Virus record (IMG/VR): IMGVR_UViG_3300045391_004887
Location: 1 to 64,000 of that record
Length of the DNA stretch: 64,000 nucleotides
Reading direction: 5' to 3' (one strand)
Source: a virus
Of the stretch, positions 2,861 to 62,592 are shown one piece after another. The translations under genes were made by a program, and so were the position numbers. The notes under the pieces are model-generated. The model searched no databases and was not told the DNA's origin. It saw only the letters and a program-made list of their open reading frames with translations. How positions within the stretch are numbered: the stretch's first letter is position 1; each line of letters starts with the position of its first letter.

Positions 2861-3196
2861 CTACCGACCGGCGGCGCTGACTGCCCACTGGAAGATCTGA
2901 ATGAGCGCCCACACCCCCATCGAACCGGCGCCGAACGCGATCCATCCGGCCGAGCGCGTCGCCAGCTTCTTGATCGTGTCGAGCGTGTCCTTCGTGTCTT
3001 TCCAATTCTGCTCGAGCACCGCGACGCGCTCTCCGACACTGGTCGAGTGCTGCAGCGCGTGACCCGCCAACGCATCGCTGCGAACAGCGGAGTCGTGGAC
3101 GCTGAGCAGCGTTCGGAGTTCGGTCATCTTCAGCGAATCGTCCAAGTGCTCCTCCGCGCTCGGTCGTGTCTGCACCGCGCTCACCGCTGCAGTCAT
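2861..3196 (-). CDS. Small protein with C-terminal TM helix (holin / lysis accessory candidate)
   Basis: Start trimmed to ATG 3196..3194, which forms an ATGA overlap with the stop of 3193..3627. C-terminal segment AGWIAFGAGSMGVWALIQIFQWAV is hydrophobic. Confidence 0.55.
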   Translation of the reverse strand: MTAAVSAVQTRPSAEEHLDDSLKMTELRTLLSVHDSAVRSDALAGHALQHSTSVGERVAVLEQNWKDTKDTLDTIKKLATRSAGWIAFGAGSMGVWALIQIFQWAVSAAGR

Positions 3197-3627
3197 CGAT
3201 CCCCCTTGGGCTTGTTCCATGCACCGCGCACCTTTCGTGTCGCGTCCTGCTCGTGGGCGAGCACCGGGGCCGCGCGGGGCACGGTCGGGTCATCGTTGCC
3301 GACGGGAGTGGATACTCCCTTGGGAAGCGGGCGCGGCGGGATCGACGTTGGGAGCCGGGCGTCCGCCTGCAGGTTCTCGAGCACCTCGCTGACCGCGGGC
3401 GTCAGCGCGTGGACGCCGAGCGTTCCTGCGAGCACCCGAACGCAGCGCTTGAGCGCATCGTTGCGACGCGTTGCGACGACAAGCTCGATCAGCGCGTTGT
3501 GCACCGTCTCGCCTCGGAGCTCGACGCGCAGCGCTGGGCTCAGCCGATCGTTCAGCAGATCGATGAGCTCGGCGTGCCTGACTTCCGCGAGCACCTGCGC
3601 TCCGCGCGCGTCGGTGTGATGGCTCAC
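3193..3627 (-). CDS. Hypothetical protein (144 aa) inside the lysis block
   Basis: Only the C-terminal half of track ORF 3193..4074 looks coding (VSHHTDARGAQVLAEVRHAELIDLLNDRLSPALRVEL...). GTG 3627..3625 makes a GTGA overlap with the stop of 3624..3914. Confidence 0.55.
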   Translation of the reverse strand: MSHHTDARGAQVLAEVRHAELIDLLNDRLSPALRVELRGETVHNALIELVVATRRNDALKRCVRVLAGTLGVHALTPAVSEVLENLQADARLPTSIPPRPLPKGVSTPVGNDDPTVPRAAPVLAHEQDATRKVRGAWNKPKGDR

Positions 3628-25504: not shown

Positions 25505-26710
25505 TCAGCTCGTGAAGCCGGGGACGTTGTGCACGATCTTGACGACGCCCGGCTTGGTGCCGCCCCGACGACGACGGTACCGGTGCGCCACGTGGTACAT
25601 GTGCATCGCTGCCACGTCGTTGTGCTTGAGGATGTCCTTGTCGGTCTCGAGGCCCATGTTCGCGGCCGAGTACCAGAAGGTCATCGCGCCGCGCTGCAGG
25701 ATCAGCGAGCTCGCCTTCAGGATCGCGTTGGCCGTCCACACGTTGTCGGTGGCCGCCGCCGCGTTCGCGATCGTTGCCGTCAGGCCGGAGTCTCCGTTCA
25801 TGCCCACGGTCGAGTCGGCGCTGGGGTCGAGCAGGGCCACGGAAGCCGCGCTCAGGATGTCGCCCGAGTAGGTGTTGCCACCATCGGTGGAGAACTGGAT
25901 CTTGAAGGTGCCGCGCGCGCCCGCCAGGGTGCACTTGATCTTCAGGTTCCACGCGCCCTTCGGCGTGCCGCTCAGGGTGATGGTCGGCGGGGTGGTGCCG
26001 GCCGCGGTGACCGCGCTCATGCTCGAGCCGGTCAGCGTCGCGCGAGCGCTCTGGACCAGGGGGATGCCCTGGAAGCGCGGAACCTGCGAGTTCTGCATCG
26101 AGCCGCCCTCGACGAGCAGCGGATGGCCATCGGCATCGCGCAGCTTGCGCAGGCCTGCCATCGTGCGCGGGTGGACGATCATGCCGACGATGTCGTCATC
26201 CTCGTCTTCCCAGATCGCGCGCGCGTCCGTGATCAGGTCCCAGTCCAGATACGCCGGCACGGTGGCGCTGTACACGTCCTTCACGAGCGGGGTTCCCGCC
26301 GCCGCGGTGTTCATCAGGTCGCCCATGCGCCGATTCGCCGCGACCTTGATCTGGTTCGTGCACTCGACGTAGGGGTCTTCCGGACCGCTGCCGCGCGCCC
26401 AGCGAGTCACTTCGAAGGCGAGGCTCGAGCGGGCAACGGTGCCCTTCTCGTTGGTCATGCTCAGCGGCTGCGGCGTGACCGCGGTGTTCTCCGGGTTGTC
26501 GACGAAGTCGCCGATCGTGCCGAAGTACGGAACCGTGATCTGATCGTCGATGGCGTCGCGACCGCGCGGCATCTCCGCGTTGATCACGACCGCGCCGCTG
26601 CTCACGAGCGGCGATTCCATGAACACGTTCTTGCCCGCGAACTCGCCGCGGACGGTGTCCTCGAGTACCTGGATGTCGAAGTCCCGACTGTCCGTGGTCG
26701 TTGCAGTCAT
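25505..26710 (-). CDS. Major capsid protein (HK97-fold type, 401 aa)
   Basis: Follows the protease-scaffold gene. The size, abundant-protein composition and AAGGGA SD fit. A Thr/Ser/Gly-rich ~100-aa central stretch (…TITLSGTPKGAWNLKIKCTLAGARGTFKIQFSTDGGNTYSG…) looks like an inserted domain. Confidence 0.8.
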   Translation of the reverse strand: MTATTTDSRDFDIQVLEDTVRGEFAGKNVFMESPLVSSGAVVINAEMPRGRDAIDDQITVPYFGTIGDFVDNPENTAVTPQPLSMTNEKGTVARSSLAFEVTRWARGSGPEDPYVECTNQIKVAANRRMGDLMNTAAAGTPLVKDVYSATVPAYLDWDLITDARAIWEDEDDDIVGMIVHPRTMAGLRKLRDADGHPLLVEGGSMQNSQVPRFQGIPLVQSARATLTGSSMSAVTAAGTTPPTITLSGTPKGAWNLKIKCTLAGARGTFKIQFSTDGGNTYSGDILSAASVALLDPSADSTVGMNGDSGLTATIANAAAATDNVWTANAILKASSLILQRGAMTFWYSAANMGLETDKDILKHNDVAAMHMYHVAHRYRRRRGGTKPGVVKIVHNVPGFTS

Positions 26711-28506: not shown

Positions 28507-28582
28507 TGGTTGCGCAGGCTGGGATCGAACCAGCGACCTGCGGATTATGAGTCCGCCGTGCAAACCACTACACCACTGCGCG
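28507..28582 (-). tRNA. tRNA-Met (anticodon CAT), 76 nt with encoded CCA and an initiator-like C1.A72 mismatch
   Basis: CGCGCAG TG GTGT AGTGGTTT GCAC G GCGGA CTCATAA TCCGC AGGTC GCTGG TTCGATC CCAGC CTGCGCA A CCA. This is a full cloverleaf. The 5' end lies 1 nt after the stop of 28583..28891. Confidence 0.85.
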
Positions 28583-28891
28583 TCAGGCGACTTCGTCTTC
28601 GCCGATCGGCTCGCGCGGATCGGGCGGCACTTCCGTAATGCCATCGGGCCGCTCGGTCATGCGGATGCTGAACTCGCGCCGGTAGGGGCGGTTCATCTCC
28701 TGCTTGAGCCAGGCATCGAACAGCATCGGGTCGGCGCGGTCGAGCCACTGACCGCCGCCGGGTCCGGGGTACAGCTGGACGCCGCACCTGTGTTGGACCA
28801 GGTCAGCGCGGAGCTCTTGCGCGAACAGCGACGCGCCTTCGATCTTGCCGCCGAGCTCGGCGGTGGTGCCGTCGCTGAAGCGCCAGATCAT
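28583..28891 (-). CDS. Small hypothetical protein (102 aa) coupled to the MuF-HExxH gene
   Basis: Start trimmed to ATG 28891..28889 (ATGA overlap): MIWRFSDGTTAELGGKIEGASLFAQELRADLVQHRCGVQLYPGPGGGQWLDRADPMLFDAWLKQEM... Confidence 0.6.
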   Translation of the reverse strand: MIWRFSDGTTAELGGKIEGASLFAQELRADLVQHRCGVQLYPGPGGGQWLDRADPMLFDAWLKQEMNRPYRREFSIRMTERPDGITEVPPDPREPIGEDEVA

Positions 28892-30390
28892 GGCCCCGCC
28901 AGCTGTCCGAGCAGGAACAGGAAGTGCTCGTGGTCCACCTGCATCAGCTTCGTAAGCTGTCCCCAATGGGCTTCGTTCGCAACGAACAGCTCCATCGCCA
29001 TGGACGTAATCTCGGTGCCGAACTGCACCCCGGACGCATCCAGATATCGGCGGCCGATGTAGGGCTCGATGAAGCTGTCCTCCCAGGCGGTGTAAGGCTG
29101 CCGCAACGTGCCGTAAGTCTTGGGCTTGGCGTTGCCGGCCCGGCTCTTCAGGAACGCGCGCGCCCGATCGAGTAGCTTCGGGTTCAGCGCTTCGAGCGTG
29201 TGAGCCAGCTCATGCTCTAAGGTGCCGGTCTCGGAAGCGAGGTACTTGACCTGCTTGGTGACGTGGTTGGCGCTGCTGATGCCGCTCCGGATGACGGTGA
29301 AGGTCCAGTCGTCGCCCGGTGTGACCACGCTCTTGCCGGTCACCTTGCTCAGCAGGTCGAGTGCGTCCTTGCCGCCCTTGAGGCGCGCGAGCTGCTTGTG
29401 CTCGACGGCGGTACGTGTGCCGATCATCTGCAGGTGGCCCGCGGTCGCCGCAGCCGCCTTGCGGAGCGGGTCGAGTTCGCCGGCCTGCGAGCGGATCGTG
29501 AGCGCGGCGTCGGCGTCCTGCAGCGCGTCGAGCATCGCAGTCGCGCCAGGGGTGTTGAGCTCCTTCAGCTGCGCGCGCGCCTGTTCGACGGTCATGTCGA
29601 GCCCGCGCTCGAGCGCTGCCCTGCCGTGGGCCAGCGACGGTGCCGCGTCGCCGTACTTCGCGCGGTAGGTCGGCTCCCAGTGCTTGGCCGTGTGCTCTTT
29701 GGGTGTGCGCGGCTTTCGCGTACGGGTACCGGTCGTCGCCTTGGCGTTGATCGCCTTGTTCAGCGAGGGATCGAAGTCCTTGGGGTTAGGCTTCCATCCC
29801 GGACCGCCCGGCGCCGAGCCCCATCCGGACTCAGGCGAGGTCGTGGGCGGGTTGGTCGTGACGCCGCGCTTCTCGGCTTCGGCGCGGCGCAGGTTCCGAA
29901 TTCCGGACCTGCATCGATGGTGAATCGGAGGAATTCGGGTCAGCCACCAAGGATCGCTCGCGGGAAGCAACGTACCGTTGTACGTGGAACATATTACAGT
30001 CGTGCGAGCATCCAAAACGGCGTCAAATAGCCACCACGGCCTGAGCTTGAGCGTGTTCGGCTCTCGCATCTGCGCCCAGCGACCAGCGTTGTACGACCGC
30101 TGGACCGCGTTGCGGAACACCGTTTCCGAGTGCGCTGGGTTGCTCAGGTTCGCGAGCATCGCCTTGCGGAAGTCTTCGAACGGCGTGCCCTTCTCGATCG
30201 CGGTGCTGATCGCGTTGTGCACGCGCTGCACCTGCTCGATGGTCAGCCCGCCGCCGACCCAGAACGCTTCCTGCTTGAGCTTGTCGTCGAGAGCGCGCGC
30301 GGTCGCCGCGGTCATCACCGTGCGCTTCTGGAACCAGGTCAGCGCCTCGTCGTACCGATCGACGTCGGCGGTGACCCCGATGGTCGGCAC
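28888..30390 (-). CDS. Head morphogenesis protein, MuF / SPP1 gp7 family, fused to a C-terminal HExxH (zincin-like) domain (500 aa)
   Basis: The N-terminal half has MuF-type motifs (…FRNAVQRSYNAGRWAQM…DARTTVICSTYNGTLLP…PPIHHRCRSG…). The C-terminal half carries …ETGTLEHELAHTLEALNP… plus downstream GTEITSMAMELF. Confidence 0.8.
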   Translation of the reverse strand: MPTIGVTADVDRYDEALTWFQKRTVMTAATARALDDKLKQEAFWVGGGLTIEQVQRVHNAISTAIEKGTPFEDFRKAMLANLSNPAHSETVFRNAVQRSYNAGRWAQMREPNTLKLRPWWLFDAVLDARTTVICSTYNGTLLPASDPWWLTRIPPIHHRCRSGIRNLRRAEAEKRGVTTNPPTTSPESGWGSAPGGPGWKPNPKDFDPSLNKAINAKATTGTRTRKPRTPKEHTAKHWEPTYRAKYGDAAPSLAHGRAALERGLDMTVEQARAQLKELNTPGATAMLDALQDADAALTIRSQAGELDPLRKAAAATAGHLQMIGTRTAVEHKQLARLKGGKDALDLLSKVTGKSVVTPGDDWTFTVIRSGISSANHVTKQVKYLASETGTLEHELAHTLEALNPKLLDRARAFLKSRAGNAKPKTYGTLRQPYTAWEDSFIEPYIGRRYLDASGVQFGTEITSMAMELFVANEAHWGQLTKLMQVDHEHFLFLLGQLAGP

Positions 30391-30394
30391 AGGA

Positions 30395-32116
30395 CTACGC
30401 GTCCGCGGTGACCGCGTGCCGGCCGGTGAACTCCCCGAGCGCCATCACGCGGTAGACGAGCTCGTTGACCTCGGTCGCGTCGAGCTCGGGAGCGAGCACC
30501 TTGAGCCGTTCGCGCAGGTCCTCGTAGCTGGTCGCGGCCTTCAGCGCTTCGCCGATCGCTGTGATCGTCGGCTCGAGCGCGGCGTCGGCCTTCTTCTTCG
30601 CGAACTCGACGATCGCGTCCGCGTAGAGCTGGCCGGCGACGAAGCCGGGGTTCTCGCTGACCGGTGCGCCCGATGCGAGCACGGCGTGAAAGCCGCCGTG
30701 CGCGAGCGCGCCCTTCTTCGGCGGCACCTTCGCGGGAGGCTTGGGCGCGTTCGGGTCGTTCGGATCGGGCACGGGATCCGGCGGCAGGTCTTCCTTCGGC
30801 TTCACCTTGATCTTCAACCCGTGCTTCTCGGCGATCTCGGCCGCGTTGACGACCTCGAAGCCTGCGTCCTGCACCGCCTTCATCGCGTCGCCGAAAGCCT
30901 TCTGCCCATCGGCCTCGGCCTTGGTGTCTTCCGGCGGCTCCGTGTCCCAGAGCGGCCACGGCGCGATCGTCGATGCGCCGAAGTTGAACTGCGCCCAGTG
31001 CGTCAGCGCCTGATCGTGCAAGCACGTCGCTGCCGTCGAGCTGACGTTGCGGATGACGCGGTCTTCGACCCGCTCGTGCACCGACGCAGCAGCGTGGCTG
31101 CCGCCCTGAACCTCGCTCGTGAGGTTCTGACCTTGGATCGCGATGTCGATCGCGGTGTTCGACGCTTCGATCTGCCCGTTGTAGTTGCGGGCCGTATTGG
31201 CCATCTGCTCGACGACCTTCATCTCGAAGCCGTTCGGCAGCACGATCACGCCGCCTGCCTGCGACAGCGCATACATGTCGTCGCTCAGCTTCTTGCGCTG
31301 GCTCGCGTTCGTCTCGAGGTCATTGCTCTCCCGCGGGGTCGCGACGAGAGCGGCGCCGACTGCGCCGGTGCGACCCCAGTCGCTGATCGCGTAGCCCTTG
31401 AGCAGCCACCAACGCGAAAGGCCACGCCACTGCCCGTACGCCCACGGCCGATACGAGCCGTAGGGCATGTACGCAATCCACTGCCCGTCACCGGCGTTGA
31501 CCGGCAGCTCGCTGCCGGTGTCCGTGCGAACGAACCACTGACGCTTCTGCCAGTCGTAGCGGAAGTGGCGGATGTCCCACGGCTCGAGCCGCGGCACGAT
31601 GCGCGTGAGGTGTGCCTGCCAGCGGAGCTGGCCCCACGACACGCCTGCGAGCCGGCCCGCAGTGAGGAACTGCTGCAGCTCGGACTCGGGGAACGCCGCC
31701 CACCAATCTTCGTCCGCTTCGAGCGCCTTGACCGCGCGGCCTCGCCGGCGGCCGTCGCCTGCTGCTTCGAAGGTGAGGTCGAGCGAGAGCAGTCCGCCGA
31801 CGGTGGTCTCATACGCCTTGCGGATGCGTTCGTCGGCAAGCAGCTGATCGCAGAGCTCGCCGAGCATCTGCATGTTGCCGCTGTCGGCAGTGCGCTCGGC
31901 AGTCTTCACGAGCTGAGGCGTCCACGTGCGCGCTGCGCGCACCGATGGCTGCTGCAGCGACGTGTTCGATCGCGCACGCTTCTCACTCGCGCTCGAATCG
32001 ATCGGTGCCGGCGCCGCAGCTGCGCTCGCGCGCGGCGGAACCGGCGCAGAAGCGCGAGCGCTTGGCCGCGGCTTGCGAATCGCTGCTGTGGCCATCGCGC
32101 TGGTTCCCTCGTTCAT
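30395..32116 (-). CDS. Portal protein (Mu gp29 / DUF935-like, 573 aa)
   Basis: Between terminase and MuF. ATGA overlap with the terminase stop. Sequence character fits Mu-type portals. Confidence 0.8.
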   Translation of the reverse strand: MNEGTSAMATAAIRKPRPSARASAPVPPRASAAAAPAPIDSSASEKRARSNTSLQQPSVRAARTWTPQLVKTAERTADSGNMQMLGELCDQLLADERIRKAYETTVGGLLSLDLTFEAAGDGRRRGRAVKALEADEDWWAAFPESELQQFLTAGRLAGVSWGQLRWQAHLTRIVPRLEPWDIRHFRYDWQKRQWFVRTDTGSELPVNAGDGQWIAYMPYGSYRPWAYGQWRGLSRWWLLKGYAISDWGRTGAVGAALVATPRESNDLETNASQRKKLSDDMYALSQAGGVIVLPNGFEMKVVEQMANTARNYNGQIEASNTAIDIAIQGQNLTSEVQGGSHAAASVHERVEDRVIRNVSSTAATCLHDQALTHWAQFNFGASTIAPWPLWDTEPPEDTKAEADGQKAFGDAMKAVQDAGFEVVNAAEIAEKHGLKIKVKPKEDLPPDPVPDPNDPNAPKPPAKVPPKKGALAHGGFHAVLASGAPVSENPGFVAGQLYADAIVEFAKKKADAALEPTITAIGEALKAATSYEDLRERLKVLAPELDATEVNELVYRVMALGEFTGRHAVTADA

Positions 32117-33486
32117 CGGCTCCAGCCGCGCCCACCGCTTCCCCTCGGCATCTCCAAGTCATCGTCACTCGCGACGCCTGGCCCGAGCATCAGGTAGGTC
32201 AGCACCCAGACGAGTGCATCGATGCGGTTCGGGCTCCAAGTCGTGACGCCCGGCTCCCACTGGCACATCTGATCTTCGAGCGCGCCGAACATGCCGACGT
32301 GGTGCACGCGCTTCTGCTCGTAGAAGCTCGCGATCGGCTCGGCGCGCACTTGCTTGCCGCGCGAGGCCCTCACCTGCTTGAACGGAATGCGCTTGTCGAC
32401 CGAGCGAACGTTGCTCTCGACCAGGTCGCCGCCGTTGTTCACCTCGCCGATGATCCGGTCGGCGTCGTGGGCGTTGTAGAGGGCGATCGCCGCCTTCGCC
32501 CACTGCTCGGGCGTCGGCTGCTCGATCGAGCCATCGGCGAGCACGTAGCCGTGCCCGTCCGTACCGAGCCCTGCAGCAACGATGCCGGTCTCGGCGCTCG
32601 CGGAATCGCTCGACACCGACGGGTCGATCGCGACCGCAACGCGCACGAGCTCGGGAAACTTGTGAACGCGCGTGTCTTCGATCAGGTCGCGCTTCCACAG
32701 CGCGCCCGGCGCGTCATCGAGGACTTCGGCCTCGAGCTCCTGACGCCCGATGCGCGTACCCTCGTACTTCTTGATGACCGTATCGAAGAACTGCGCAGCG
32801 AGGTTGCTGCGGTTCTCGTACGTCGTGCCCTTGGTCAGGTAGACGTAGGGCTTGTCGAGCGGCTTGGCGGCGAGCTGTGACGCCGCGATCAGCTCCTTCA
32901 GCAGCGGGATCGGCTTCGGCGTCGTGGTGAACACCGCGCGCGGGTTGGCACCCTTGCGCAGCCCCATCGCGAGCTGATCGAACGCGTCCGCGTAGCGCCA
33001 CTTCGCGATCTCGTCGCCCCACGCGCACGTGTGCTGTGGGCCACGAAGCTGATCCGGCTCTTCGGCCGAGTAGGTCGTTGCTCGAGCACCGTTCGGCCAC
33101 GTCAACCGGCGCTTGCTCGGCTCGTACTTCGGCTTGAACCATGGCGGAGCGCACTCGATTAGGCCGCTCTCGCCTTCGACCATCACGTCACGCGCGTCAG
33201 CGGAGGTCTCCCCCACAAGCGCGATGCGTTCTCGCGGATCGGCCTCGGCACGCGCTGTGATCCACTGCGCACCGAGCTTCGTCTTGCCGAAGCCTCGGCC
33301 AGCGACGACCAGCCAGTATCGCCACCACTGCCCGTCGGGCTCGATCTGCTTGGGCCGTGCCCAGAAGCTCCAGTCCCATTCAAGCGCACGAGCCTCGGCG
33401 TCCGTGAGCTCGGCGAAGAACTTCGCCCGCAGGTCGTCGTCGAGCGCGAGCTGCTCAGCGAGGCTGAGCTCGGCGATCGCGTTCAC
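32113..33486 (-). CDS. Terminase large subunit (457 aa)
   Basis: Walker A in LVVAGRGFGKTKLGAQW, with a downstream nuclease-type acidic half. GTGA overlap with the small subunit gene. Confidence 0.85.
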   Translation of the reverse strand: MNAIAELSLAEQLALDDDLRAKFFAELTDAEARALEWDWSFWARPKQIEPDGQWWRYWLVVAGRGFGKTKLGAQWITARAEADPRERIALVGETSADARDVMVEGESGLIECAPPWFKPKYEPSKRRLTWPNGARATTYSAEEPDQLRGPQHTCAWGDEIAKWRYADAFDQLAMGLRKGANPRAVFTTTPKPIPLLKELIAASQLAAKPLDKPYVYLTKGTTYENRSNLAAQFFDTVIKKYEGTRIGRQELEAEVLDDAPGALWKRDLIEDTRVHKFPELVRVAVAIDPSVSSDSASAETGIVAAGLGTDGHGYVLADGSIEQPTPEQWAKAAIALYNAHDADRIIGEVNNGGDLVESNVRSVDKRIPFKQVRASRGKQVRAEPIASFYEQKRVHHVGMFGALEDQMCQWEPGVTTWSPNRIDALVWVLTYLMLGPGVASDDDLEMPRGSGGRGWSR

Positions 33487-34034
33487 GACGCCGCTGGCGG
33501 CACCGAGCGCAAGCGCGTCTTGAGGTCATCGAGCTTGCGAGCGAGACCGGTCTTGGCCTCCGCGACCTCGATCGGACCACCGCCCGCGCCCGTGAGCTCG
33601 AGCCGGCTACCGGTCGCCGCGTCATGGCCTTCGAGCTTGGCGCGCCGCTCTTCGATCCGCACCAGCGTCCGCACGGCTTCGGGGTCCCCCTTCTGCACCT
33701 GCGGCCACATCGCCAGGTTCGCGGCGTCGAGCCGGCGAAGCGAGAGCTCGCGCGACTGCTCCATGCGCGTCTTGCTCTCGTCGGTCGCCCGCAACAGCAC
33801 CGCCTCGATGTCGCCGTGCACGGTCGCCAGGCTGCACCCGAGCTGCTCGGCGATCGCGCGGATCGAGTGCCCCTTGATGCGCAGATCGGTGACCTTCGCT
33901 CGCCGCTGCTCGACCTGCAGCTCGTGAGCCGAGGACTTCGGGGTGCGCTTGCGCTTGGGCTTCGGCGGCTTGCGCTTCGCCCGACGGGCGAGCGTGGTCC
34001 GGTGCGGCTCAGGGGTACTTCGTTCGAGGTCCAT
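33483..34034 (-). CDS. Terminase small subunit (HTH, 183 aa)
   Basis: Basic N-terminus, HTH …IKGHSIRAIAEQLGCSLATVHGDI…, helical oligomerisation-like C-terminus. Located immediately upstream of the large subunit. Confidence 0.7.
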   Translation of the reverse strand: MDLERSTPEPHRTTLARRAKRKPPKPKRKRTPKSSAHELQVEQRRAKVTDLRIKGHSIRAIAEQLGCSLATVHGDIEAVLLRATDESKTRMEQSRELSLRRLDAANLAMWPQVQKGDPEAVRTLVRIEERRAKLEGHDAATGSRLELTGAGGGPIEVAEAKTGLARKLDDLKTRLRSVPPAAS

Positions 34035-42975: not shown

Positions 42976-43211
42976 GCGGGTCGCTTCGTTTGCGATCAGC
43001 CGCGCAGCAGCGACGCGATCAGCGGGCGAGAGGTGGAGGCGAATGAGGTGTGCCGGGATTACGCGCCCGGCCGCGATCGACGCCGCACCTGCTTCGCCAG
43101 CTTTGCCCGCGCTTACGTTGGCCCGCGCGTTGCCTCGCGTGATCGGCTGCCGGCCGAGGATCAGCTCGTCCCCGTCTCTCCGGAGTGTCTGCCTGCGGTC
43201 TTTCGTCGAAG

Positions 43212-43290
43212 TGGCTCGTGAGGGAATCGAACCCCCTTCGCGCAAGCGCACGGCGTTTACAGCGCCGCTCCCATCCACTGGGTACGAGCC
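43212..43290 (-). tRNA. tRNA-Tyr (anticodon GTA), class II with long variable arm, 79 nt, no encoded CCA
   Basis: GGCTCGT AC CCA GTGGA TGG GAG CGGCG CTGTAAA CGCCG TGCGCTTGCGCGAA GGGGG TTCGATT CCCTC ACGAGCC A. Perfect acceptor, anticodon and T stems. The D arm is compressed. Confidence 0.65.
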
Positions 43291-47802: not shown

Positions 47803-47881
47803 GTGGCGGGTGAGGGAATCGAACCCCCTTTGCGCAAGCGCGAGCGATGTACAGTCGCCCTGCCCTCCATGGGCTCCCCGC
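47803..47881 (-). tRNA. Second tRNA-Tyr(GTA)-like gene, 79 nt; non-canonical C37 and G7.A66
   Basis: GGCGGGG AG CCC ATGGA GGG CAG GGCGA CTGTACA TCGCT CGCGCTTGCGCAAA GGGGG TTCGATT CCCTC ACCCGCC A. Same architecture as 43212..43290, with compensatory stem changes. Confidence 0.5.
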
Positions 47882-47895
47882 CGACAGCTGAAGCG

Positions 47896-56327: not shown

Positions 56328-57011
56328 GTGATCGAGCGCACCTGCCAGAACTGTGAGTCCGCGTTCCGCGTGAAGGCCTGCGAGGTCAAGCGTGGCGGCG
56401 GACTCTATTGTTCTGTGCGCTGCCGCCAAGCCGCCAGCAGAAAGGGCTCTTTGAAGGCGTGCGAGGCGTGCGGCGAACCCTTCTACGCGCAGCGATCACG
56501 GGCGAAGTACGGCAAGGGGCGCTTCTGCTCGAAGGCGTGCGGTTCGAGAGGCGATAACAACGCGAATTGGTTGGGAGGGCGAAAGATCGTCAATGGGTAC
56601 GTGTTCCTCCATTCTCCCAACCATCCCCATGCCGACGAAAAAGGGTATGTGGAGGAGCATCGGCTTGTCGCTGAGAGGGTTCATAAGCTGCTCCTCCCGC
56701 GGGAAGCAGTGGTTCACCATCTCAACGAGATTCGCTCCGACAATCGCCCGAGCAATCTCGTGATCTGTCCCAACCAGGCCTACCACATCGCGATCCACAA
56801 CCGCATGCGGCGGATCGCAGCGCTGCGAGCGGTCGGCGGCGATCCCGCGGTGCATCAACTGTGCGTGCGCTGCGAAACACCTAAAGCGTTCTCGGAGTTC
56901 CATCGCACCAAGCACGGCCCGAACGGATTCGCGAGTACGTGTAAGGCGTGCGCGCGAGTGCGCTCAGCTGACAAGTACCAGCGGTTGAAGAATCAGAGGA
57001 AGGCGTCATGA
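56328..57011 (+). CDS. HNH endonuclease (HNH_3-like) flanked by zinc-ribbon repeats (227 aa), lower GC than its neighbours
   Basis: GTG 56328 lies 8 nt after AGGAG. …GYVFLHSPNHPHADEKGYVEEHRLVAERV…VVHHLNEIRSDNRPSNLVI…. Confidence 0.8.
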   Translation: MIERTCQNCESAFRVKACEVKRGGGLYCSVRCRQAASRKGSLKACEACGEPFYAQRSRAKYGKGRFCSKACGSRGDNNANWLGGRKIVNGYVFLHSPNHPHADEKGYVEEHRLVAERVHKLLLPREAVVHHLNEIRSDNRPSNLVICPNQAYHIAIHNRMRRIAALRAVGGDPAVHQLCVRCETPKAFSEFHRTKHGPNGFASTCKACARVRSADKYQRLKNQRKAS

Positions 57012-58525
57012 GCAAGGTCATCGAATTGCAGGATGTGGGGCCGATCAGCCGACTCGAGATCCCGATTCCCTCGGGCGGAGGCGTTGTATTGCTTCGCGGA
57101 AAGAACGGCGCAGGCAAGAGTCACGCGCTCGCTGCGGTGTCTGCGCTCGTGGGTTCAGGGGACAAGCCGACCTCGCGCGACGGCTCGCTCGGTGCCCAAG
57201 TCACAGGTCTTGGAATTCGGCTGACCGTCGGGCGCCGGACGGCACTGTCTGGCGAACTCGAGGTGACAGCCCTCGACGGCGAAGACCCGAGCCTGTTGGT
57301 CGATCCCGGCATCAAGTCGCCGGACGCGGCGGATGCAGAGCGCATCCGCTCGCTTCTCCGGCTGTCGCGCTCGAACGTGGAGCCGAGCGCGTTCGCTCAC
57401 CTGGTCGGCGGTGACACGCGTCTGCGCGAGCTGTGCGCCCCGACGAGCCTCGAGTCGAAGGGCGATGTCCCGGCGATGGCCTCGGCGATCAAGCGAGATC
57501 TCGAGCGGGCCGCGCGCGAGCTGGAGAAGAAGGCCGACGGACTCCGCTCGAAAGCGATGGGCGCCCGCGGCACGCTGAAGGACCCCGACGCGGCCGGCGT
57601 CTCCCGACACACGAGCGCCGAGGAAGCCCGCGCAGCCCACACCGAAGCGGTCCGCGCGCACGCTGCGCTCGAAGCGACAGACGCACAGCAGAAGAAGCTC
57701 ATCACCGCGGCGAAGGAAGCGCGCGCAGCGCTGGAGTCGCTCGGCGAATCCGGCAGCCCGCATGCGATCGAAGTCGCCGAGACCGCGCTGACTGAATCCG
57801 AGACTGCGATCGAGGCGGCGCGCGCCGAGCTGGACCGCAAGAAGGCGGCTCTCGAGGAAGCGCGCGCAGCCGTGGCCAAGGCTACTTCCGAGCTCGAGCA
57901 GCGCCAGGACACCGCGGCCGCAAAGCGCGAAGCGGTGGCGCGACAGAAGCGGCAAGCCGAGCAGCGCGCAGCGCTCGACCGGGCTGTCGCCGCCGCTGCC
58001 GGTGCCTGCGAGATCAGCCCCGACGAGCTCAAGGCTGCCGAGCAACGCGTCGTCACCATGCGCGAAGAGGCCGAGCGCTGGGTGATGCGCGAGAAGACCG
58101 CGCGCGTCCTTGAGGAAGCGGCGCGCATCCAAGCCGAAGGCGACGAGGCCGCGCGCGAAGCTGCCGACCTGCGCGCCGCTGCGAAGGGCACGGAAGTCGT
58201 CGTGCTCGAAGCCGTGCGCGCGATCTGCGGCGAACACATGCACCTGAACGATGGCCGGCTCTACGTCGACACCGAGCGCGGGCTGGAGCTCTTCTCCGAG
58301 CTCTCCGACGGCGAGCGATGGCGCCGAGCCCTGGACATCGCCGTCAAGGCAGTGGGCCGCGACGGGCTTCTCGTCGTGCGTCAGCAGGCGTGGGAAAGCC
58401 TGGACCCGATCGCAAAGGCTGAGGTCGCTCAGTACGTCAAGCAGATCGGTGTGGTCGTGCTGACCGCTGCGCACGACGCAGGTCCGATCCGCGCGGAGAT
58501 CCACGAGGACACGGCGGCGGGGTGA
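57008..58525 (+). CDS. Rad50/SbcC/SMC-like ABC ATPase with coiled-coil insertion (505 aa)
   Basis: Walker A LLRGKNGAGKSHAL, ~250-aa E/A/R coiled coil, signature-like LSDGERW, Walker B-like LLVVRQQAWESLD, then TAAHD. Confidence 0.75.
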   Translation: MSKVIELQDVGPISRLEIPIPSGGGVVLLRGKNGAGKSHALAAVSALVGSGDKPTSRDGSLGAQVTGLGIRLTVGRRTALSGELEVTALDGEDPSLLVDPGIKSPDAADAERIRSLLRLSRSNVEPSAFAHLVGGDTRLRELCAPTSLESKGDVPAMASAIKRDLERAARELEKKADGLRSKAMGARGTLKDPDAAGVSRHTSAEEARAAHTEAVRAHAALEATDAQQKKLITAAKEARAALESLGESGSPHAIEVAETALTESETAIEAARAELDRKKAALEEARAAVAKATSELEQRQDTAAAKREAVARQKRQAEQRAALDRAVAAAAGACEISPDELKAAEQRVVTMREEAERWVMREKTARVLEEAARIQAEGDEAAREAADLRAAAKGTEVVVLEAVRAICGEHMHLNDGRLYVDTERGLELFSELSDGERWRRALDIAVKAVGRDGLLVVRQQAWESLDPIAKAEVAQYVKQIGVVVLTAAHDAGPIRAEIHEDTAAG

Positions 58526-58633: not shown

Positions 58634-59206
58634 ATGAACGACACAGCCAGCATCGTCCCAAACGCTCGAGCCGCCTCCATCCCGCGGATCATCAACGGGC
58701 TCGCGCGCTACATGCGCCTCAAGCTCGAAGAGAACGCGCTGAAGCCGCCCTGGCGGATGGAGAGCGACAACGCGCTGATCGGCCAGTTCCGCGACGAATG
58801 CCGCGAGCTCGTCGAAGCGGTGATCTACAAACACGGCGCGGAGGCCATCGCGCGCGAAGCCGCCGACGTCGCGAACCTCGCAGCGATGCTCGCCGACAAC
58901 GCAGGCGCGTTCACCGACGAGCCGAAGCCGGAGCCCATCTCCGAGGTGCAGCCCAAGCCGCCGGTCTCGGAGAGCGAGGAAGTCGCGAGACTCCGCGCCG
59001 AGCTCGCCGAGGTGACCGCTGACCGCGATCGGTGGGTCGCGCGGATGAAGCTGCTCGAGCGTTTCATCGATCGCGCGGTGCTCGTGCTCACCGGGCGTGC
59101 GCCAGTCGATGATACGAGGGCCCGGCTCGAAGAGTTGGTCGCTCTCGTCGCTGCTGCGAAGAACGGCGAAGCGCTCGCTCTGATCAGCAAGTGGGGGTCA
59201 CCGTGA
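58634..59206 (+). CDS. MazG-like NTP pyrophosphohydrolase domain plus coiled-coil tail (190 aa)
   Basis: Internal ATG 58634. …KLEENALKPPW…LIGQFRDECRELVEAV…EAIAREAADVANLAAMLAD… (EExxE … ExxD pattern). Confidence 0.55.
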   Translation: MNDTASIVPNARAASIPRIINGLARYMRLKLEENALKPPWRMESDNALIGQFRDECRELVEAVIYKHGAEAIAREAADVANLAAMLADNAGAFTDEPKPEPISEVQPKPPVSESEEVARLRAELAEVTADRDRWVARMKLLERFIDRAVLVLTGRAPVDDTRARLEELVALVAAAKNGEALALISKWGSP

Positions 59207-61284
59207 TGCTGGGTGGGAGGTCACACCCGCGCGCTCCGGTGGACCAGGAGATCACCGGCGCAACCGCTCGCGCCGGCGACCAGCACGGTCTCTTCGGCTG
59301 GGAGCTCGAGGCCGGGTCCTGGTACTTCCGCCGCGCGAACGGCACGCGCGCTGCGGTCACGAGGGAAACGGACGGCACGTACACGGGGTTCAAAGGATAC
59401 CCCACGTACGATATCCGCGGCGGTCTCACCTTGCGCGAAGCGATGCTCTGGGCTGTGCCCGAAAGCATCCACCCCGTCGCAGCTGCGCAGGCGCAGGGGA
59501 AGCCGATCGATCTCGCGCCCGGCAACTGCTGGGACATCTCGCCCAAGGGCGCGGCCGCGGTCAACGGCGAGCAGGTGGCAGCGGAAGTGCTGCAGGAGAT
59601 GGCGACGCCGGCAGGCGAGTGCACGCGCCACGGCTGCGAGAAGAGCGCGTGCGAGGAGGTGGCGGCAGCGCAGGCGCGGACCGCCGCGGCTGAACAGCGA
59701 GTTGCCGACCTGGTCGCCCAAATCGAGCGCGCCGGTTGCGCCGCTGCTCACGCTGGCGAGACCACGTACGAGTGCAACGTCAGCAAGCCGTGCGGCCTGT
59801 GTCGGCTGCGCGCTCGCGCTGAAGCCGCCGAGCGCGACCTCGCGCGCGCGACCCGCCGGGCCGACGAGCACACGCGCAAGCTGGCGACGGCGCGACAGGG
59901 CGAACGGCTGATGGCCATGCGGCTCGGCATCGACCCCGACACGGTCAGCTCGTACGTGCAGCTCGATCTCGCGATAAGCGACTTGTGCAAGAGGGCGGAG
60001 ACGGCGGAGCGGGAGCGGGACGAGCAGACCGCGAAGTGCGTGCGGTACGCGACGCGGCTGCACTTCGCGAGGACAGACCTGGCTGATTTGGCCGGAGCGA
60101 TCCTAGCGCCAGAACAGCAGCGCTTAGGCGTGACCGAGCGCGTGTTCGCTGCGCTCGACCGCCAAGCGCGCGAGGCTGGCGCGCGGAAGGAGGAGAGCGT
60201 GGACGACAATAGCGTTGCCCGGAAAAACATCGAGACGCGCGAAGAATGGAGCACGCGCTGCAGCGCTGGCGTCGGCTACCACGTGTGCGGGCATGCCGCG
60301 CCGGGGGCGGACGCGCGTTGCCAGCGCGAATGCTTTCATCTGGGACCGCACGCAGGCGGCGGCAGCTGGTGGGGCGTGTCGGAGTGCGCGCCCGACGCGA
60401 GAGACGCGGCTGCGAAAACACAACAAGCGCTCATCGAGTGCGAAGCCGCGTTGGCGGAAGAGAAGGGCCTCCGAGCAGAGGCCGAAGAAGCTCTGGCCCG
60501 TGCGACCACGGCTGCATCCCCAGGGTCGCCGCGCGCGGGTTTTAAACCACCGGCCCCGGGTGGGGAGGAACAGGGGCCCCGCAAGGGCGACGCGAGCGAG
60601 CCCGCGGGTGAGGCGCCGCTGACGGCTGAGACGGTGGTCGAACAAGTGCGTCGTAGTCCGTGGCACGTGAAGCATCTCGACGCGATCGCGCTGGTCGAGC
60701 GGTACGCCCGCGAGCAAGTCGCCACTGCCCTCAGCTTCGACGGCGCCGATGCGACGCGCGCGAACATGCGCGAGCATGCGGACAAGATCGAGCGGGCGTT
60801 CGCCGCGGCCAGCCAGCGGGCAGATACTGCCGAAAGTAAGCTCGCGACCGCGAACGCGGAGATCGAGAAGCTGAAGGCGGAGCGCGACGACGCGAGGCGG
60901 CTGTTCAGGTCGGCAGAGTCGCAGCGCAAGAAGGACAAGGCCGCATCTCCCGACGCGCGGTTGCGAGAGGCGGCGAGGGATTTGCGGTCGACGTGGTACC
61001 GCGTGCTCAACGAAGGAACCGTGCACGGGGCCGACAGCACGGGGTTCCGCGATCACAACTTCGCCGCGCTACGCGATGCGGTGAACGCCGTTTGCGAAGC
61101 TATCACCACCGCCCCCGCGCCCACGCCGGCTGAGGGCGGGGAGGTCGGGCGCGAGCGCGGGCTCTACGCGACGCTGAAGGCCGTGCGCGACGTGCACGAA
61201 GCGATCATCGGCGTCGAGCACATGCTTATCGAAGCCGGCGCCCTCCGCGACACCAGCGCCGTCACGCGGGAGCCGCGGTCGTGA
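59206..61284 (+). CDS. Large Cys-rich coiled-coil protein of unknown function (692 aa)
   Basis: ATG shares 1 nt with the upstream TGA. Several Cys clusters (CTRHGCEKSAC; CNVSKPCGLC; CSAGVGYHVCGH…CQRECFH) are separated by long E/A/R helices. Confidence 0.65.
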   Translation: MLGGRSHPRAPVDQEITGATARAGDQHGLFGWELEAGSWYFRRANGTRAAVTRETDGTYTGFKGYPTYDIRGGLTLREAMLWAVPESIHPVAAAQAQGKPIDLAPGNCWDISPKGAAAVNGEQVAAEVLQEMATPAGECTRHGCEKSACEEVAAAQARTAAAEQRVADLVAQIERAGCAAAHAGETTYECNVSKPCGLCRLRARAEAAERDLARATRRADEHTRKLATARQGERLMAMRLGIDPDTVSSYVQLDLAISDLCKRAETAERERDEQTAKCVRYATRLHFARTDLADLAGAILAPEQQRLGVTERVFAALDRQAREAGARKEESVDDNSVARKNIETREEWSTRCSAGVGYHVCGHAAPGADARCQRECFHLGPHAGGGSWWGVSECAPDARDAAAKTQQALIECEAALAEEKGLRAEAEEALARATTAASPGSPRAGFKPPAPGGEEQGPRKGDASEPAGEAPLTAETVVEQVRRSPWHVKHLDAIALVERYAREQVATALSFDGADATRANMREHADKIERAFAAASQRADTAESKLATANAEIEKLKAERDDARRLFRSAESQRKKDKAASPDARLREAARDLRSTWYRVLNEGTVHGADSTGFRDHNFAALRDAVNAVCEAITTAPAPTPAEGGEVGRERGLYATLKAVRDVHEAIIGVEHMLIEAGALRDTSAVTREPRS

Positions 61285-61469
61285 GCGGGCGGCGGAAGCC
61301 ATACAAGTCGTCGCGCGGGAACGGCTGCGACTGGGTCCACGGGCCGACCATCGTGGGTCAGTTCGCGAATGCAGCCGTGGTCGCGGAGTATCTCAACGAC
61401 GCGTACGCCGCCGGTGTCGCGTCCGAACGCGCCCGCGTGCGGGCGAAGGCGAAGAAGGCGGGGCGCTGA
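61281..61469 (+). CDS. Small hypothetical protein (62 aa)
   Basis: GTGA overlap. Confidence 0.45.
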   Translation: MSGRRKPYKSSRGNGCDWVHGPTIVGQFANAAVVAEYLNDAYAAGVASERARVRAKAKKAGR

Positions 61470-61720
61470 TGGCCGACGCCGCCCAACTTCTGGTCCTAGC
61501 GCACGCGTGCGAGTCGTCGATGACGACCTCACGCGCGATCGCGAAGCTCGCGCACAAGAAGTGCGTGGAGGAAGCACGCCGCGGCGACGTCGTGCTGATG
61601 GACGCGCTCCGCGAGATCGCAACCGCCGCGGAGCACTGCGAAGCGGTCTGGACGAACGTGCACAACAAGCTGGTGCTGATCGCGAAGGAACAGGGGGTAA
61701 GCGGATGGGGCGAACGATGA
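61469..61720 (+). CDS. Small hypothetical protein (83 aa)
   Basis: TGATG coupling. Helical and Cys-containing. Confidence 0.5.
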   Translation: MADAAQLLVLAHACESSMTTSRAIAKLAHKKCVEEARRGDVVLMDALREIATAAEHCEAVWTNVHNKLVLIAKEQGVSGWGER

Positions 61721-62592
61721 AGCGTGTGCCGATGGACTTCGACTGGCCGATTGGCAAGGTGTGGGGCGGATACCTCAACCCCTACAGCCATCAGGCGATC
61801 GACTGTCCCACATGCGGCGGTAGCGGTCGTTCGGCGGATGCCAACCGGTTCCACGACGAGTGGTATGGGAAGGTGCCGTTCGATCCGGTCGCGTACGGCG
61901 CGAAGCCGCTGACGGTCGATCATCCCGAGATCAAGGCGTTCGCAACGCGGAACGTCGAGCGCTCTCCCGACTTCTATGGCTCCGGCGATGCGGCCGTGCT
62001 CCGCGAGCAACGCCGGCTGTTCGCGCACTGGCGGGGGCAGTGGTGCCATCACCTCATCCAAGCGGATGTTGACGCGCTCGTAGAAGCCGGCCGACTCAAA
62101 GACTTCACGCACCGTCCGCTCACGCCGGAGCAGGCGGAAGCGCTGCGCGCCACCGGCAACTACTGGATGGCGGAGCCGAACGGCTATCGACCGACCGCCG
62201 ATGAAGTCAACACGTGGTCGCTGCACGGCCTGGCACACGACGCTATCAACGCACACGTCTGCATCGAGGCTCGCTGCAAGCGCGATGGTGTGCCGGACAC
62301 GTGCACGCGTTGCGCGGGCGAGGGAACGCTGTGGCCGACGCCCGAGATCAAGCAGCTCGAGGAGGATTGGAAGGAAGTGCAGCCGCCGACCGGCGAAGGC
62401 TTCCAGCTGTGGGAGACGACATCGGAGGGTTCGCCCACGTCGCCGGTGTTCGCGACGATCGAGCAGCTGTGCGAGTGGTGCGCCGACAACGCGACCACGT
62501 TCGCCAGCTTCAAAGCGAGCGCGGAGGAGTGGCGTCGCATGCTCGACGCCGATTTCGTGGTGGTCAAGCAGGGAAACATGGTGTTCCTGTGA
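61717..62592 (+). CDS. Hypothetical protein (291 aa)
   Basis: Start trimmed to ATG 61717 (ATGA overlap): MKRVPMDFDWPIGKVWGGYLNPYSHQAIDCPTCGGSGRS… The upstream part of track ORF 61369..62592 is Arg-rich junk. Confidence 0.65.
   Translation: MKRVPMDFDWPIGKVWGGYLNPYSHQAIDCPTCGGSGRSADANRFHDEWYGKVPFDPVAYGAKPLTVDHPEIKAFATRNVERSPDFYGSGDAAVLREQRRLFAHWRGQWCHHLIQADVDALVEAGRLKDFTHRPLTPEQAEALRATGNYWMAEPNGYRPTADEVNTWSLHGLAHDAINAHVCIEARCKRDGVPDTCTRCAGEGTLWPTPEIKQLEEDWKEVQPPTGEGFQLWETTSEGSPTSPVFATIEQLCEWCADNATTFASFKASAEEWRRMLDADFVVVKQGNMVFL

Follow-up and report, generated by a model that had tools for sequence, protein, structure and literature searches.

A MuF minor head protein with a zincin-like carboxy-terminal core and a coupled small open reading frame in a tailed-phage genome

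The DNA analysed here, hereafter called the window, comprises positions 1 to 64,000 of the IMG/VR virus record IMGVR_UViG_3300045391_004887. A gene on its minus strand encodes a 500-residue protein in which an amino-terminal MuF-type minor head protein domain is joined, via a flexible linker and a helical spacer, to a carboxy-terminal region with the hallmarks of a zinc metallopeptidase (zincin), and the gene overlaps a 102-residue open reading frame (ORF) directly downstream. The catalytic signature of the zincin-like core is conserved throughout a large family of homologues, the carboxy-terminus differs between related MuF proteins and a coupled small ORF recurs in distant members of the zincin family. 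We consider it reasonably likely that the protein is a capsid-resident MuF pilot protein with a probably active peptidase as its cargo, and that the 102-residue protein is a small stoichiometric partner, either an inhibitor or a chaperone.

Architecture of the 500-residue protein

The 500-residue ORF lies where an earlier note on this DNA had placed it, and the strings that the note had quoted from it, DARTTVICSTYNGTLLP, PPIHHRCRS and ETGTLEHELAHTLEALNP, are all present in the translation. An AlphaFold2 model of the protein, built on an alignment of 85 homologous sequences, has a mean predicted local distance difference test score (pLDDT) of 90.3 and is made up of a MuF fold, a poorly ordered linker, a helical region and a compact alpha/beta region, the core. 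Coordinates of these parts and of all other features are collected in Table 1. The assignment of the amino-terminal half to the MuF/SPP1-gp7 type was confirmed by a match to Pfam family PF04233 (E=2.3e-13, 51.3 bits against a cut-off of 29.6) and by the position of the gene beside the portal gene; the protein also matches phrog_220 ("minor head protein and DNA pilot") over residues 13-318 (E=5e-38), while TIGR01641 (SPP1 gp7) scores 37.4 bits, slightly below its cut-off of 39.65.

The linker, already described as basic in the earlier note, is rich in proline and glycine at first and then basic. It is mostly devoid of regular secondary structure, and pLDDT drops to 68-86 there. It is followed by the spacer, with predicted helices formed by residues 235-264, 268-275, 281-289, 308-323 and 332-336, at pLDDT values of about 98. 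The spacer is kept only in closer relatives, which match positions 1-258 of the profile made from the carboxy-terminal half, whereas distant relatives match only positions ~140-258; no match to it was found in the F proteins of Riverbug, Mx4 and Mu. The last ~230 residues had been taken as one carboxy-terminal domain. The HExxH-bearing part of that proposal stands, but the region is not a single domain, because distant relatives share only the core; it is better divided into the spacer and the core of about 155 residues.

The core, with pLDDT values of 95-98, starts with three short beta-strands (residues 363-384), followed by the helix that bears the HExxH motif, here HELAH (residues 390-402, pLDDT ~98), and by a later helix (residues 461-471) that begins at Glu460. 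In the model, this order of sheet, HExxH helix and later helix from Glu460 is compatible with what is expected for a zincin.

Conservation of the zincin-like core

The carboxy-terminal half of the protein was compared exhaustively by HMMER with 1.84 billion cluster representatives (clustered at 50% identity; threshold E<=1e-3), of which 688 match its profile. A k-mer-indexed search was too insensitive for this purpose: residues 251-500 gave a single match and missed the window protein itself, and a profile made from 30 core sequences gave only 11 short unnamed proteins. Among the full-length matches listed, most are about 500 residues long with the core at the carboxy-terminal end, and distant ones share only a core of about 120 residues. 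The HE..H motif is present in 147 of the 149 listed matches (P0040-P0188); the two exceptions are proteins of 100 and 317 residues, in which the match falls outside the motif. Most of these 149 also contain a terminal DPEHFxFxLGQLAG-like motif, and the window core likewise closes with DxEHFxFxLGQLAG.

Residue conservation was analysed in two alignments, one of 85 sequences (A3, with identities to the window protein down to ~20%) and one of 30 (A5). His393, Glu394, His397, Arg417, Tyr444, Gly446, Glu460 and Asp486 are invariant in A3, and Arg371, Glu400, Phe413, Glu433, Asp438, Tyr449, Thr459 and Ser463 are nearly so. His393, Glu394, His397 and Glu460 are invariant in A5 too. The HExxH motif, which the earlier note had pointed out, cannot be put down to chance, because its two histidines and its glutamate are invariant across 85 sequences of such low identity; the conservation looks like that of an active HExxH...E enzyme of the gluzincin type. 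Glu460 would be the third zinc ligand, with Glu400, which extends the motif to HExxHxxE and is invariant in A5, as the alternative candidate.

Relation of the core to known families

Neither the carboxy-terminal region nor the small ORF could be placed in a named family by the earlier note, and profile and structure searches also ended without a match. For residues 233-500 of the window protein no family was found in Pfam (none at E<=1), NCBIfam or PADLOC. Over the core, Pfam gave nothing beyond scattered sub-threshold matches, whether the queries were the 85 full-length homologues, 30 cores taken alone or eight family members encoded by isolated phages. These weak signals are to HExxH peptidase families such as M57, M91, M78, MPTase-PolyVal, M43, M1, SprT, M50B and reprolysin; 10 of the 17 weakly matching Pfam families are HExxH-type peptidases, and the best sub-threshold values among homologues are 5e-5 for M91 (in one of the 85) and 0.024 for PF18818 (in one of the 30). 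In PHROGs, pieces of the family are present only as entries of "unknown function" (phrog_2299, 33618 and 8561). By its sequence, the core appears to represent a zincin family that is widespread, though without a name or a characterised structure.

A sequence-profile search of the PDB with the core returned no relative. When the full-length model was compared with BFVD by Foldseek, only MuF proteins were obtained, which is uninformative on the core; against the PDB nothing significant was found, and the sole peptidase listed is selecase (PDB entry 4qhf; E=6.9 over 56 columns). Selecase is a minimal gluzincin and, like the core, a small HExxH...E peptidase with a short sheet, an active-site helix and a later helix bearing a glutamate; it differs in that the window core has an insertion of about 60 residues between the HExxH motif and the Glu helix, and the match is insignificant. 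When the core is aligned by hhalign with the ATLF zincin of Myxococcus phage Mx4, only 40 columns, those of the strands and the HExxH helix, are paired (probability 48%), which indicates a zincin scaffold in common but a different family.

Identity of the carboxy-terminus with Ct_MAD (Jamet et al.) or MuF-C/PBECR (Iyer et al.) was considered and rejected: Mu gp30 has no HExxH and does not match the zincin profile, even with filters off. The two of the 12 parts of the Ct_MAD profile that comprise nodes 127-148 and 235-251 contain neither HExxH nor the LGQLAG end, and the carboxy-terminal consensus of that profile resembles the end of Mu gp30.

The absence of significant sequence or structural matches to characterised peptidases is what would be expected if the HExxH region were a non-catalytic structural or binding domain, a pseudo-peptidase, and the 102-residue ORF a small virion or accessory gene without any connection to it; the occurrence of small-ORF homologues in other contexts, including one behind a tape-measure gene, also fits this. 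We regard it as very unlikely. Both histidines, the catalytic glutamate and the downstream glutamate are invariant across hundreds of divergent sequences, which would be difficult to account for if the region neither bound metal nor acted as a catalyst, and a small ORF is coupled to the zincin gene in most of the distant members (see below).

The carboxy-terminus as an exchangeable module

When phage records were searched with the protein by tblastn, the best amino-terminal matches were to the MuF genes of 312 records and covered only residues ~6-182. Three of these relatives carry different carboxy-termini, in agreement with the earlier description of MuF as a module with a variable carboxy-terminal domain. 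Thermus phage Riverbug gp29 (42.8% amino-terminal identity to the window protein) ends in a PBECR2 ribonuclease (RNase) domain (E=2.7e-19), Myxococcus phage Mx4 p46 (38.7%) in an ATLF zincin that scores above cut-off, and FP_Mushu gp28 (~30%) has no carboxy-terminal extension at all. Because close amino-terminal relatives carry PBECR2, ATLF or nothing, the carboxy-terminus is exchangeable at the depth of the window's MuF clade; the case in which the earlier note would have seen a structural head component, a carboxy-terminal domain kept in all MuF homologues of the clade, is not what the relatives show. The varied carboxy-termini fit two published accounts, in which MuF serves to carry effectors that vary (PMC5512222, PMC5576092). 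Zincin-bearing relatives are between 59% and 17% identical to the window protein at the amino-terminus, and amino-terminal and core identities correlate only moderately (r=0.49). In the closest relatives the core diverges faster than the MuF domain, with identities of 28-47% against 48-59%.

The Mx4 protein is the nearest parallel in layout. Like the window gene, the gene for p46 lies behind the portal gene, encodes a MuF protein with a carboxy-terminal HExxH zincin and overlaps a small ORF (67-residue p47) by 4 nt. The zincin belongs to another family, however: the ATLF profile (PF07737) is above cut-off in Mx4 and has no match in the window, and the two small ORFs are not homologous. Mu gp30 (F) and Riverbug gp29 share the amino-terminal MuF domain (E=8e-42 and 1e-69, respectively, with the window MuF profile) and the Mu-type head module, whereas their carboxy-termini have an RNase fold of PBECR type without HExxH and do not match the zincin profile with filters off.

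The 102-residue protein and coupled small ORFs

The ATGA coupling described in the earlier note is present: the ATG of the 102-residue ORF, which begins with MIWRF, overlaps the upstream TGA (ccATGAtc). The ORF list gives a 127-residue frame with a TTG start (28583..28966), in which the ATG at 28891 yields 102 residues. The protein has 38 cluster-level homologues with identities of 39-85% and is the product of a real gene. The amino-terminus of this small-protein family is almost invariant (MIWRFSDGTTxELGGxVEGxSLFAQxLR), with Trp3, Phe5, Asp7, Thr9, Leu13, Gly14, Gly15, Gly19, Ala24 and Gln25 fully conserved; the middle is variable and the tail proline-rich (IPxLPPPP). AlphaFold2 predicts a compact fold with the order beta-beta-beta-alpha-beta-beta-alpha-alpha-beta (pLDDT 93.2, predicted template-modelling score 0.85). 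No match was found in Pfam, NCBIfam or PADLOC; the only match in PHROGs, to the unannotated phrog_11270, is sub-threshold (E=0.13), the best PDB profile match has E=0.17 and the best Foldseek match of the model E=4.3. Neither sequence nor fold matched a described immunity or peptidase-inhibitor family in Pfam, NCBIfam, PADLOC or the PDB. In viral, genomic and metagenomic loci, the small ORF is located directly past a MuF-spacer-zincin gene in most of those with upstream sequence, and some related loci have one additional small ORF in between.

Coupling was also analysed beyond the close clade of the window, in 15 diverse zincin-family members. In 13 of these, an ORF of 70-127 codons follows, with an overlap of 1-23 nt or a start within 3 nt, which matches the published figure for MuF toxin genes, 89.4% of which have a small downstream ORF, compared with 25.5% of short MuF genes (PMC5576092). 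Homology to the 102-residue protein was detected for the neighbour of P0060 only (E=1.5e-13); three others form a separate family. Most of the downstream proteins are acidic and show no detectable homology to one another; even so, in 8 of the 13 the last two residues are a hydrophobic one and Tyr or Phe (TIY, VVY, RVY, RKY, TIY, AIY, EIY and IIF). Such hydrophobic-Tyr/Phe ends are also found in 21 of 38 members of the small-protein family of the window, the window copy itself ending in DEVA. Against a background of carboxy-terminal Tyr or Phe of ~8-10%, estimated from a small sample (n=39), the binomial probability is about 1e-6 to 2e-5, and the enrichment suggests a shared functional constraint.

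A MuF protein with an enzyme-like extension and a small gene behind it also recalls the MuF polymorphic toxins that Jamet et al. (2017, PMC5576092) described from temperate phages. These have PF04233 at the amino-terminus, lie beside the portal gene, carry an enzyme-like carboxy-terminal extension that varies between related MuF proteins and are directly followed by an ORF of less than 150 residues; a metallopeptidase is found in 20% of the published set (PMC5576092). The window pair could thus be a classical toxin and immunity pair, in which the zincin, delivered by the phage, would inhibit the growth of bacteria or kill them and so harm non-lysogenic competitors and the 102-residue protein would protect the producer or lysogen. 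The architecture and coupled small ORF match the published definition, the exchangeable carboxy-terminal domain and the lower conservation of the core in the closest relatives would agree with it, and copies of the small ORF away from zincin genes resemble orphan immunity genes. Several observations nevertheless make this unlikely. The core matches none of the Pfam, NCBIfam and PADLOC toxin profiles, nor is it Ct_MAD, and the small protein matches no known immunity profile. The amino-terminus of the small protein is nearly invariant even though the cores are only ~30-45% identical, unlike in hypervariable immunity proteins. The pair belongs to a late structural operon, from which a prophage would not obviously express an "immunity" protein, and a scan of about 20 large ORFs of the window gave no match to an integrase, transposase or repressor. 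Peptidase cargo is expected by Jamet et al. to be only moderately toxic (PMC5576092). A further difference from the MuF polymorphic toxins is the reach of the zincin family, which also occurs in large Vibrio phages, in a cyanophage and in fusions with the portal.

Distribution and architectures of the zincin family

With a central family member as the tblastn query, the core was found in 87 isolated phage records. Carriers include Streptococcus pyogenes prophage 315.3, Javan phages, Lactococcus phages 50902 and 62503, Flavobacterium phage pippi8-1, Geobacillus phage GBK1, Vibrio phages of ~157 kb, Planktothrix phage PaV-LD and Xanthomonas phage Rb1, where the core is flanked by an "internal head protein" and a giant SNF2 protein. 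Three isolated-phage members match the zincin profile with E-values from 4e-41 to 9e-30. A Pfam MuF match is present in 62 of the 85 members of middle size; among the longer ones are portal-MuF-core fusions, a MuF protein with an intein, one protein with ART-PolyVal and several with two cores. Because of these MuF matches and portal-MuF-core fusions, the core can be regarded as physically tied to the portal, and the fusions and the internal-head-protein context suggest that it would sit inside the capsid.

Several architectures were noted individually. Some homologues are single-chain portal-MuF-zincin or portal-zincin proteins (P0079, P0097, P0100, P0147 and P0062); P0147 additionally carries a 2H phosphoesterase/Acb1-like region, and in P0062 an intein (Hint) is inserted directly after the MuF domain. 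The metagenomic proteins P0075, P0081, P0106, P0133 and P0168 contain two copies of the core in one chain. In Planktothrix phage PaV-LD, ORF080R and ORF081R (L043, 1862-2956 and 2953-4107) are adjacent, overlapping genes that each end in a core. In L001 (9203-10690), the closest homologous locus outside the window's phage, with ~50% identity in the core, the MuF-zincin coding sequence is distributed over three frames and the terminase gene, too, is in pieces; these breaks are probably assembly errors or signs of a decaying prophage and not a real stand-alone zincin gene.

Iyer et al. are said to have proposed a self-processing role for the MPTase domains of polyvalent proteins. By analogy, the core might be a morphogenetic or self-processing peptidase that acts, in cis or in trans, in the procapsid or just after ejection, for example by cutting the linker and so freeing MuF or itself, or by processing other head or ejection proteins, with the small ORF as an assembly cofactor; we see this as a minor possibility. 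It would account for the position of the core at the carboxy-terminal end and for its conserved terminal motif in most listed matches, and the long flexible linker separates the MuF domain from the rest. Portal-MuF-core fusions, double cores and polyvalent contexts with ART or 2H domains would need processing. In the polyvalent-protein survey by Iyer et al. (2017, PMC5512222), the main hub domain is the zincin MPTase. On the other hand, the phage already encodes a prohead protease-scaffold of ClpP/Mu-I type, and close MuF relatives have no peptidase, or an RNase instead, so that the module is not needed for assembly of a Mu-type head. PF18818 (MPTase-PolyVal), moreover, does not match the window protein. 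Polyvalent proteins share with the window protein a zincin-like domain in virion-packaged, MuF- or portal-linked proteins, and with distant members of the zincin family the ART-PolyVal, 2H/Acb1-like or intein domains alongside; the window protein is a simple two-module protein and not a giant of 2-15 domains.

Gene neighbourhood

The minus strand of the window from ~25.5 to 34 kb contains a tailed-phage packaging and head module (Table 1). The portal gene ends at position 30395 and the MuF-zincin gene starts at 30390; the genes for the protease-scaffold and the major capsid protein come after it. The same 500-residue gene call is also present on two independent metagenome contigs (L005 and L006). 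The amino-terminal half of the protease-scaffold protein is ClpP/NfeD-like and its carboxy-terminal half a coiled-coil similar to the Mu gene I/Z scaffold; from this fusion it follows that the phage already has a conventional prohead protease. The head module also contains a tRNA-Met gene, which separates the MuF-zincin pair from the protease-scaffold gene; at the related loci L028 and L031 its position is taken by a 78-residue ORF matching phrog_12296 ("tail fiber protein").

The window contains a myovirus-type structural module and a DnaD-like loader. Two tRNA-Tyr (GTA) genes of 80 nt each, about 4.6 kb apart, were predicted by ARAGORN in the early/replication region (43211-43290 and 47803-47882, minus strand). 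Large plus-strand ORFs between 51000 and 64000, such as 57008-58525, 59191-61284 and 61369-62592, gave no PHROG or Pfam match at the thresholds used.

Table 1. Location of the features discussed. Positions refer to the window, except for the last eight rows, which refer to the locus named.
Feature	Position	Strand	Remarks
Small terminase-like ORF	33483-34034	-	head module
Large terminase	32113-33486	-	Terminase_6N/6C
Mu-type portal	30395-32116	-	PF06074, E=8e-41
MuF-zincin fusion gene, 500 aa	28888-30390	-	GTG start; stop codon 28888-28890
MuF/SPP1-gp7-type minor head protein domain, residues 55-162	29905..30228	-	Pfam PF04233 (Phage_Mu_F)
Flexible linker, residues 176-232	29695..29865	-	Pro/Gly-rich then basic; from translation
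Helical spacer, residues ~233-344	29359..29694	-	AlphaFold2 model
Zincin-like (HExxH...E) metallopeptidase core, residues 345-500	28891..29358	-	profile and AlphaFold2
HELAH motif, His393-His397	29200-29214	-	presumed zinc-binding/catalytic; from translation
Glu460	29011..29013	-	in (A)TE(I/V)xS motif (here GTEIT); candidate third zinc ligand; from translation
102-aa ORF	28583-28891	-	ATGA overlap; small acidic alpha/beta protein
tRNA-Met (CAT)	28507-28582	-	begins directly past stop of 102-aa ORF
ClpP-like/Mu-I-like protease-scaffold, 500 aa	26892-28394	-	PF00574 and PF10123
Major capsid protein	25505-26710	-
Small ORF downstream of distant zincin member, L040	4453-4686
Small ORF downstream of distant zincin member, L041	4375-4587
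Small ORF downstream of distant zincin member, L042	4448-4666
Small ORF downstream of distant zincin member, L050	4111-4326
Small ORF downstream of distant zincin member, L052	4525-4866
Small ORF downstream of distant zincin member, L053	4567-4866
Small ORF downstream of distant zincin member, L056	4326-4583
Small ORF downstream of distant zincin member, L057	3746-3970

Discussion

In the reading that we favour, the gene product would be a portal-associated MuF minor head ("pilot") protein that carries, on its linker and spacer, a catalytically competent-looking, gluzincin-like zinc metallopeptidase as carboxy-terminal cargo, and the carboxy-terminal position in this MuF clade is a slot for exchangeable enzymes. 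We infer that the cargo would enter the capsid together with the MuF part, be ejected with the DNA and act proteolytically on proteins of the next host. The role of an accessory effector seems the most likely one for it, rather than that of a core assembly component, because other phages hold an RNase or an ATLF zincin in the same slot. The 102-residue protein would be made together with the zincin and most likely bind it in the producing cell, as an inhibitor ("immunity" protein) or as a folding or packaging chaperone.

A number of observations speak against this proposal of an injected peptidase with a dedicated partner. The core is very widely conserved and has a recurrent carboxy-terminal motif, features that might point to a part in structure or assembly instead. 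The only peptidase in the Foldseek results, selecase, is an insignificant match. The downstream ORFs of distant family members mostly have no detectable homology to the 102-residue protein. Homologues of the small ORF are also present in other surroundings: directly behind a tape-measure gene (L038, ~884-1196), at a locus that is free of zincin genes within 3 kb (L024, ~3085-3403) and, as an orphan among universal-stress-protein genes, in a Meiothermus metagenome-assembled genome (L021, 3992-4306). The lack of integrase, transposase and repressor matches among the large ORFs scanned is to be counted here as well.

A further-reaching version of the favoured proposal is doubtful but possible. 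It holds that protease and inhibitor or chaperone form an ancient, cross-phylum pair, that tailed phages load this pair into the capsid on the MuF/portal scaffold and inject it with the DNA, that a protein of the host, such as one involved in defence or the stress response, is cleaved soon after infection begins, and that the partner plugs the active site until packaging or ejection, with its amino-terminal hairpin or, in many lineages, with its hydrophobic-Tyr/Phe carboxy-terminal end.

MuF-fused effectors, metallopeptidases among them, with a small ORF next to the gene were known already; what appears to be new is this zincin core together with its small partner. Enzymes fused to MuF form a recognised class of capsid-delivered effectors that has seen little testing. 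The zincin family described here amounts to 688 clusters at 50% identity, occurs from S. pyogenes and Lactococcus prophages to Vibrio phages and cyanophages, and has no name, structure or known substrate; a family name would improve the annotation of what is commonly called "minor head protein". Members are present in the cultivable phages 315.3, 50902, pippi8-1 and GBK1, and the peptidase and its partner could reveal what a phage gains from injecting a protease with its DNA.

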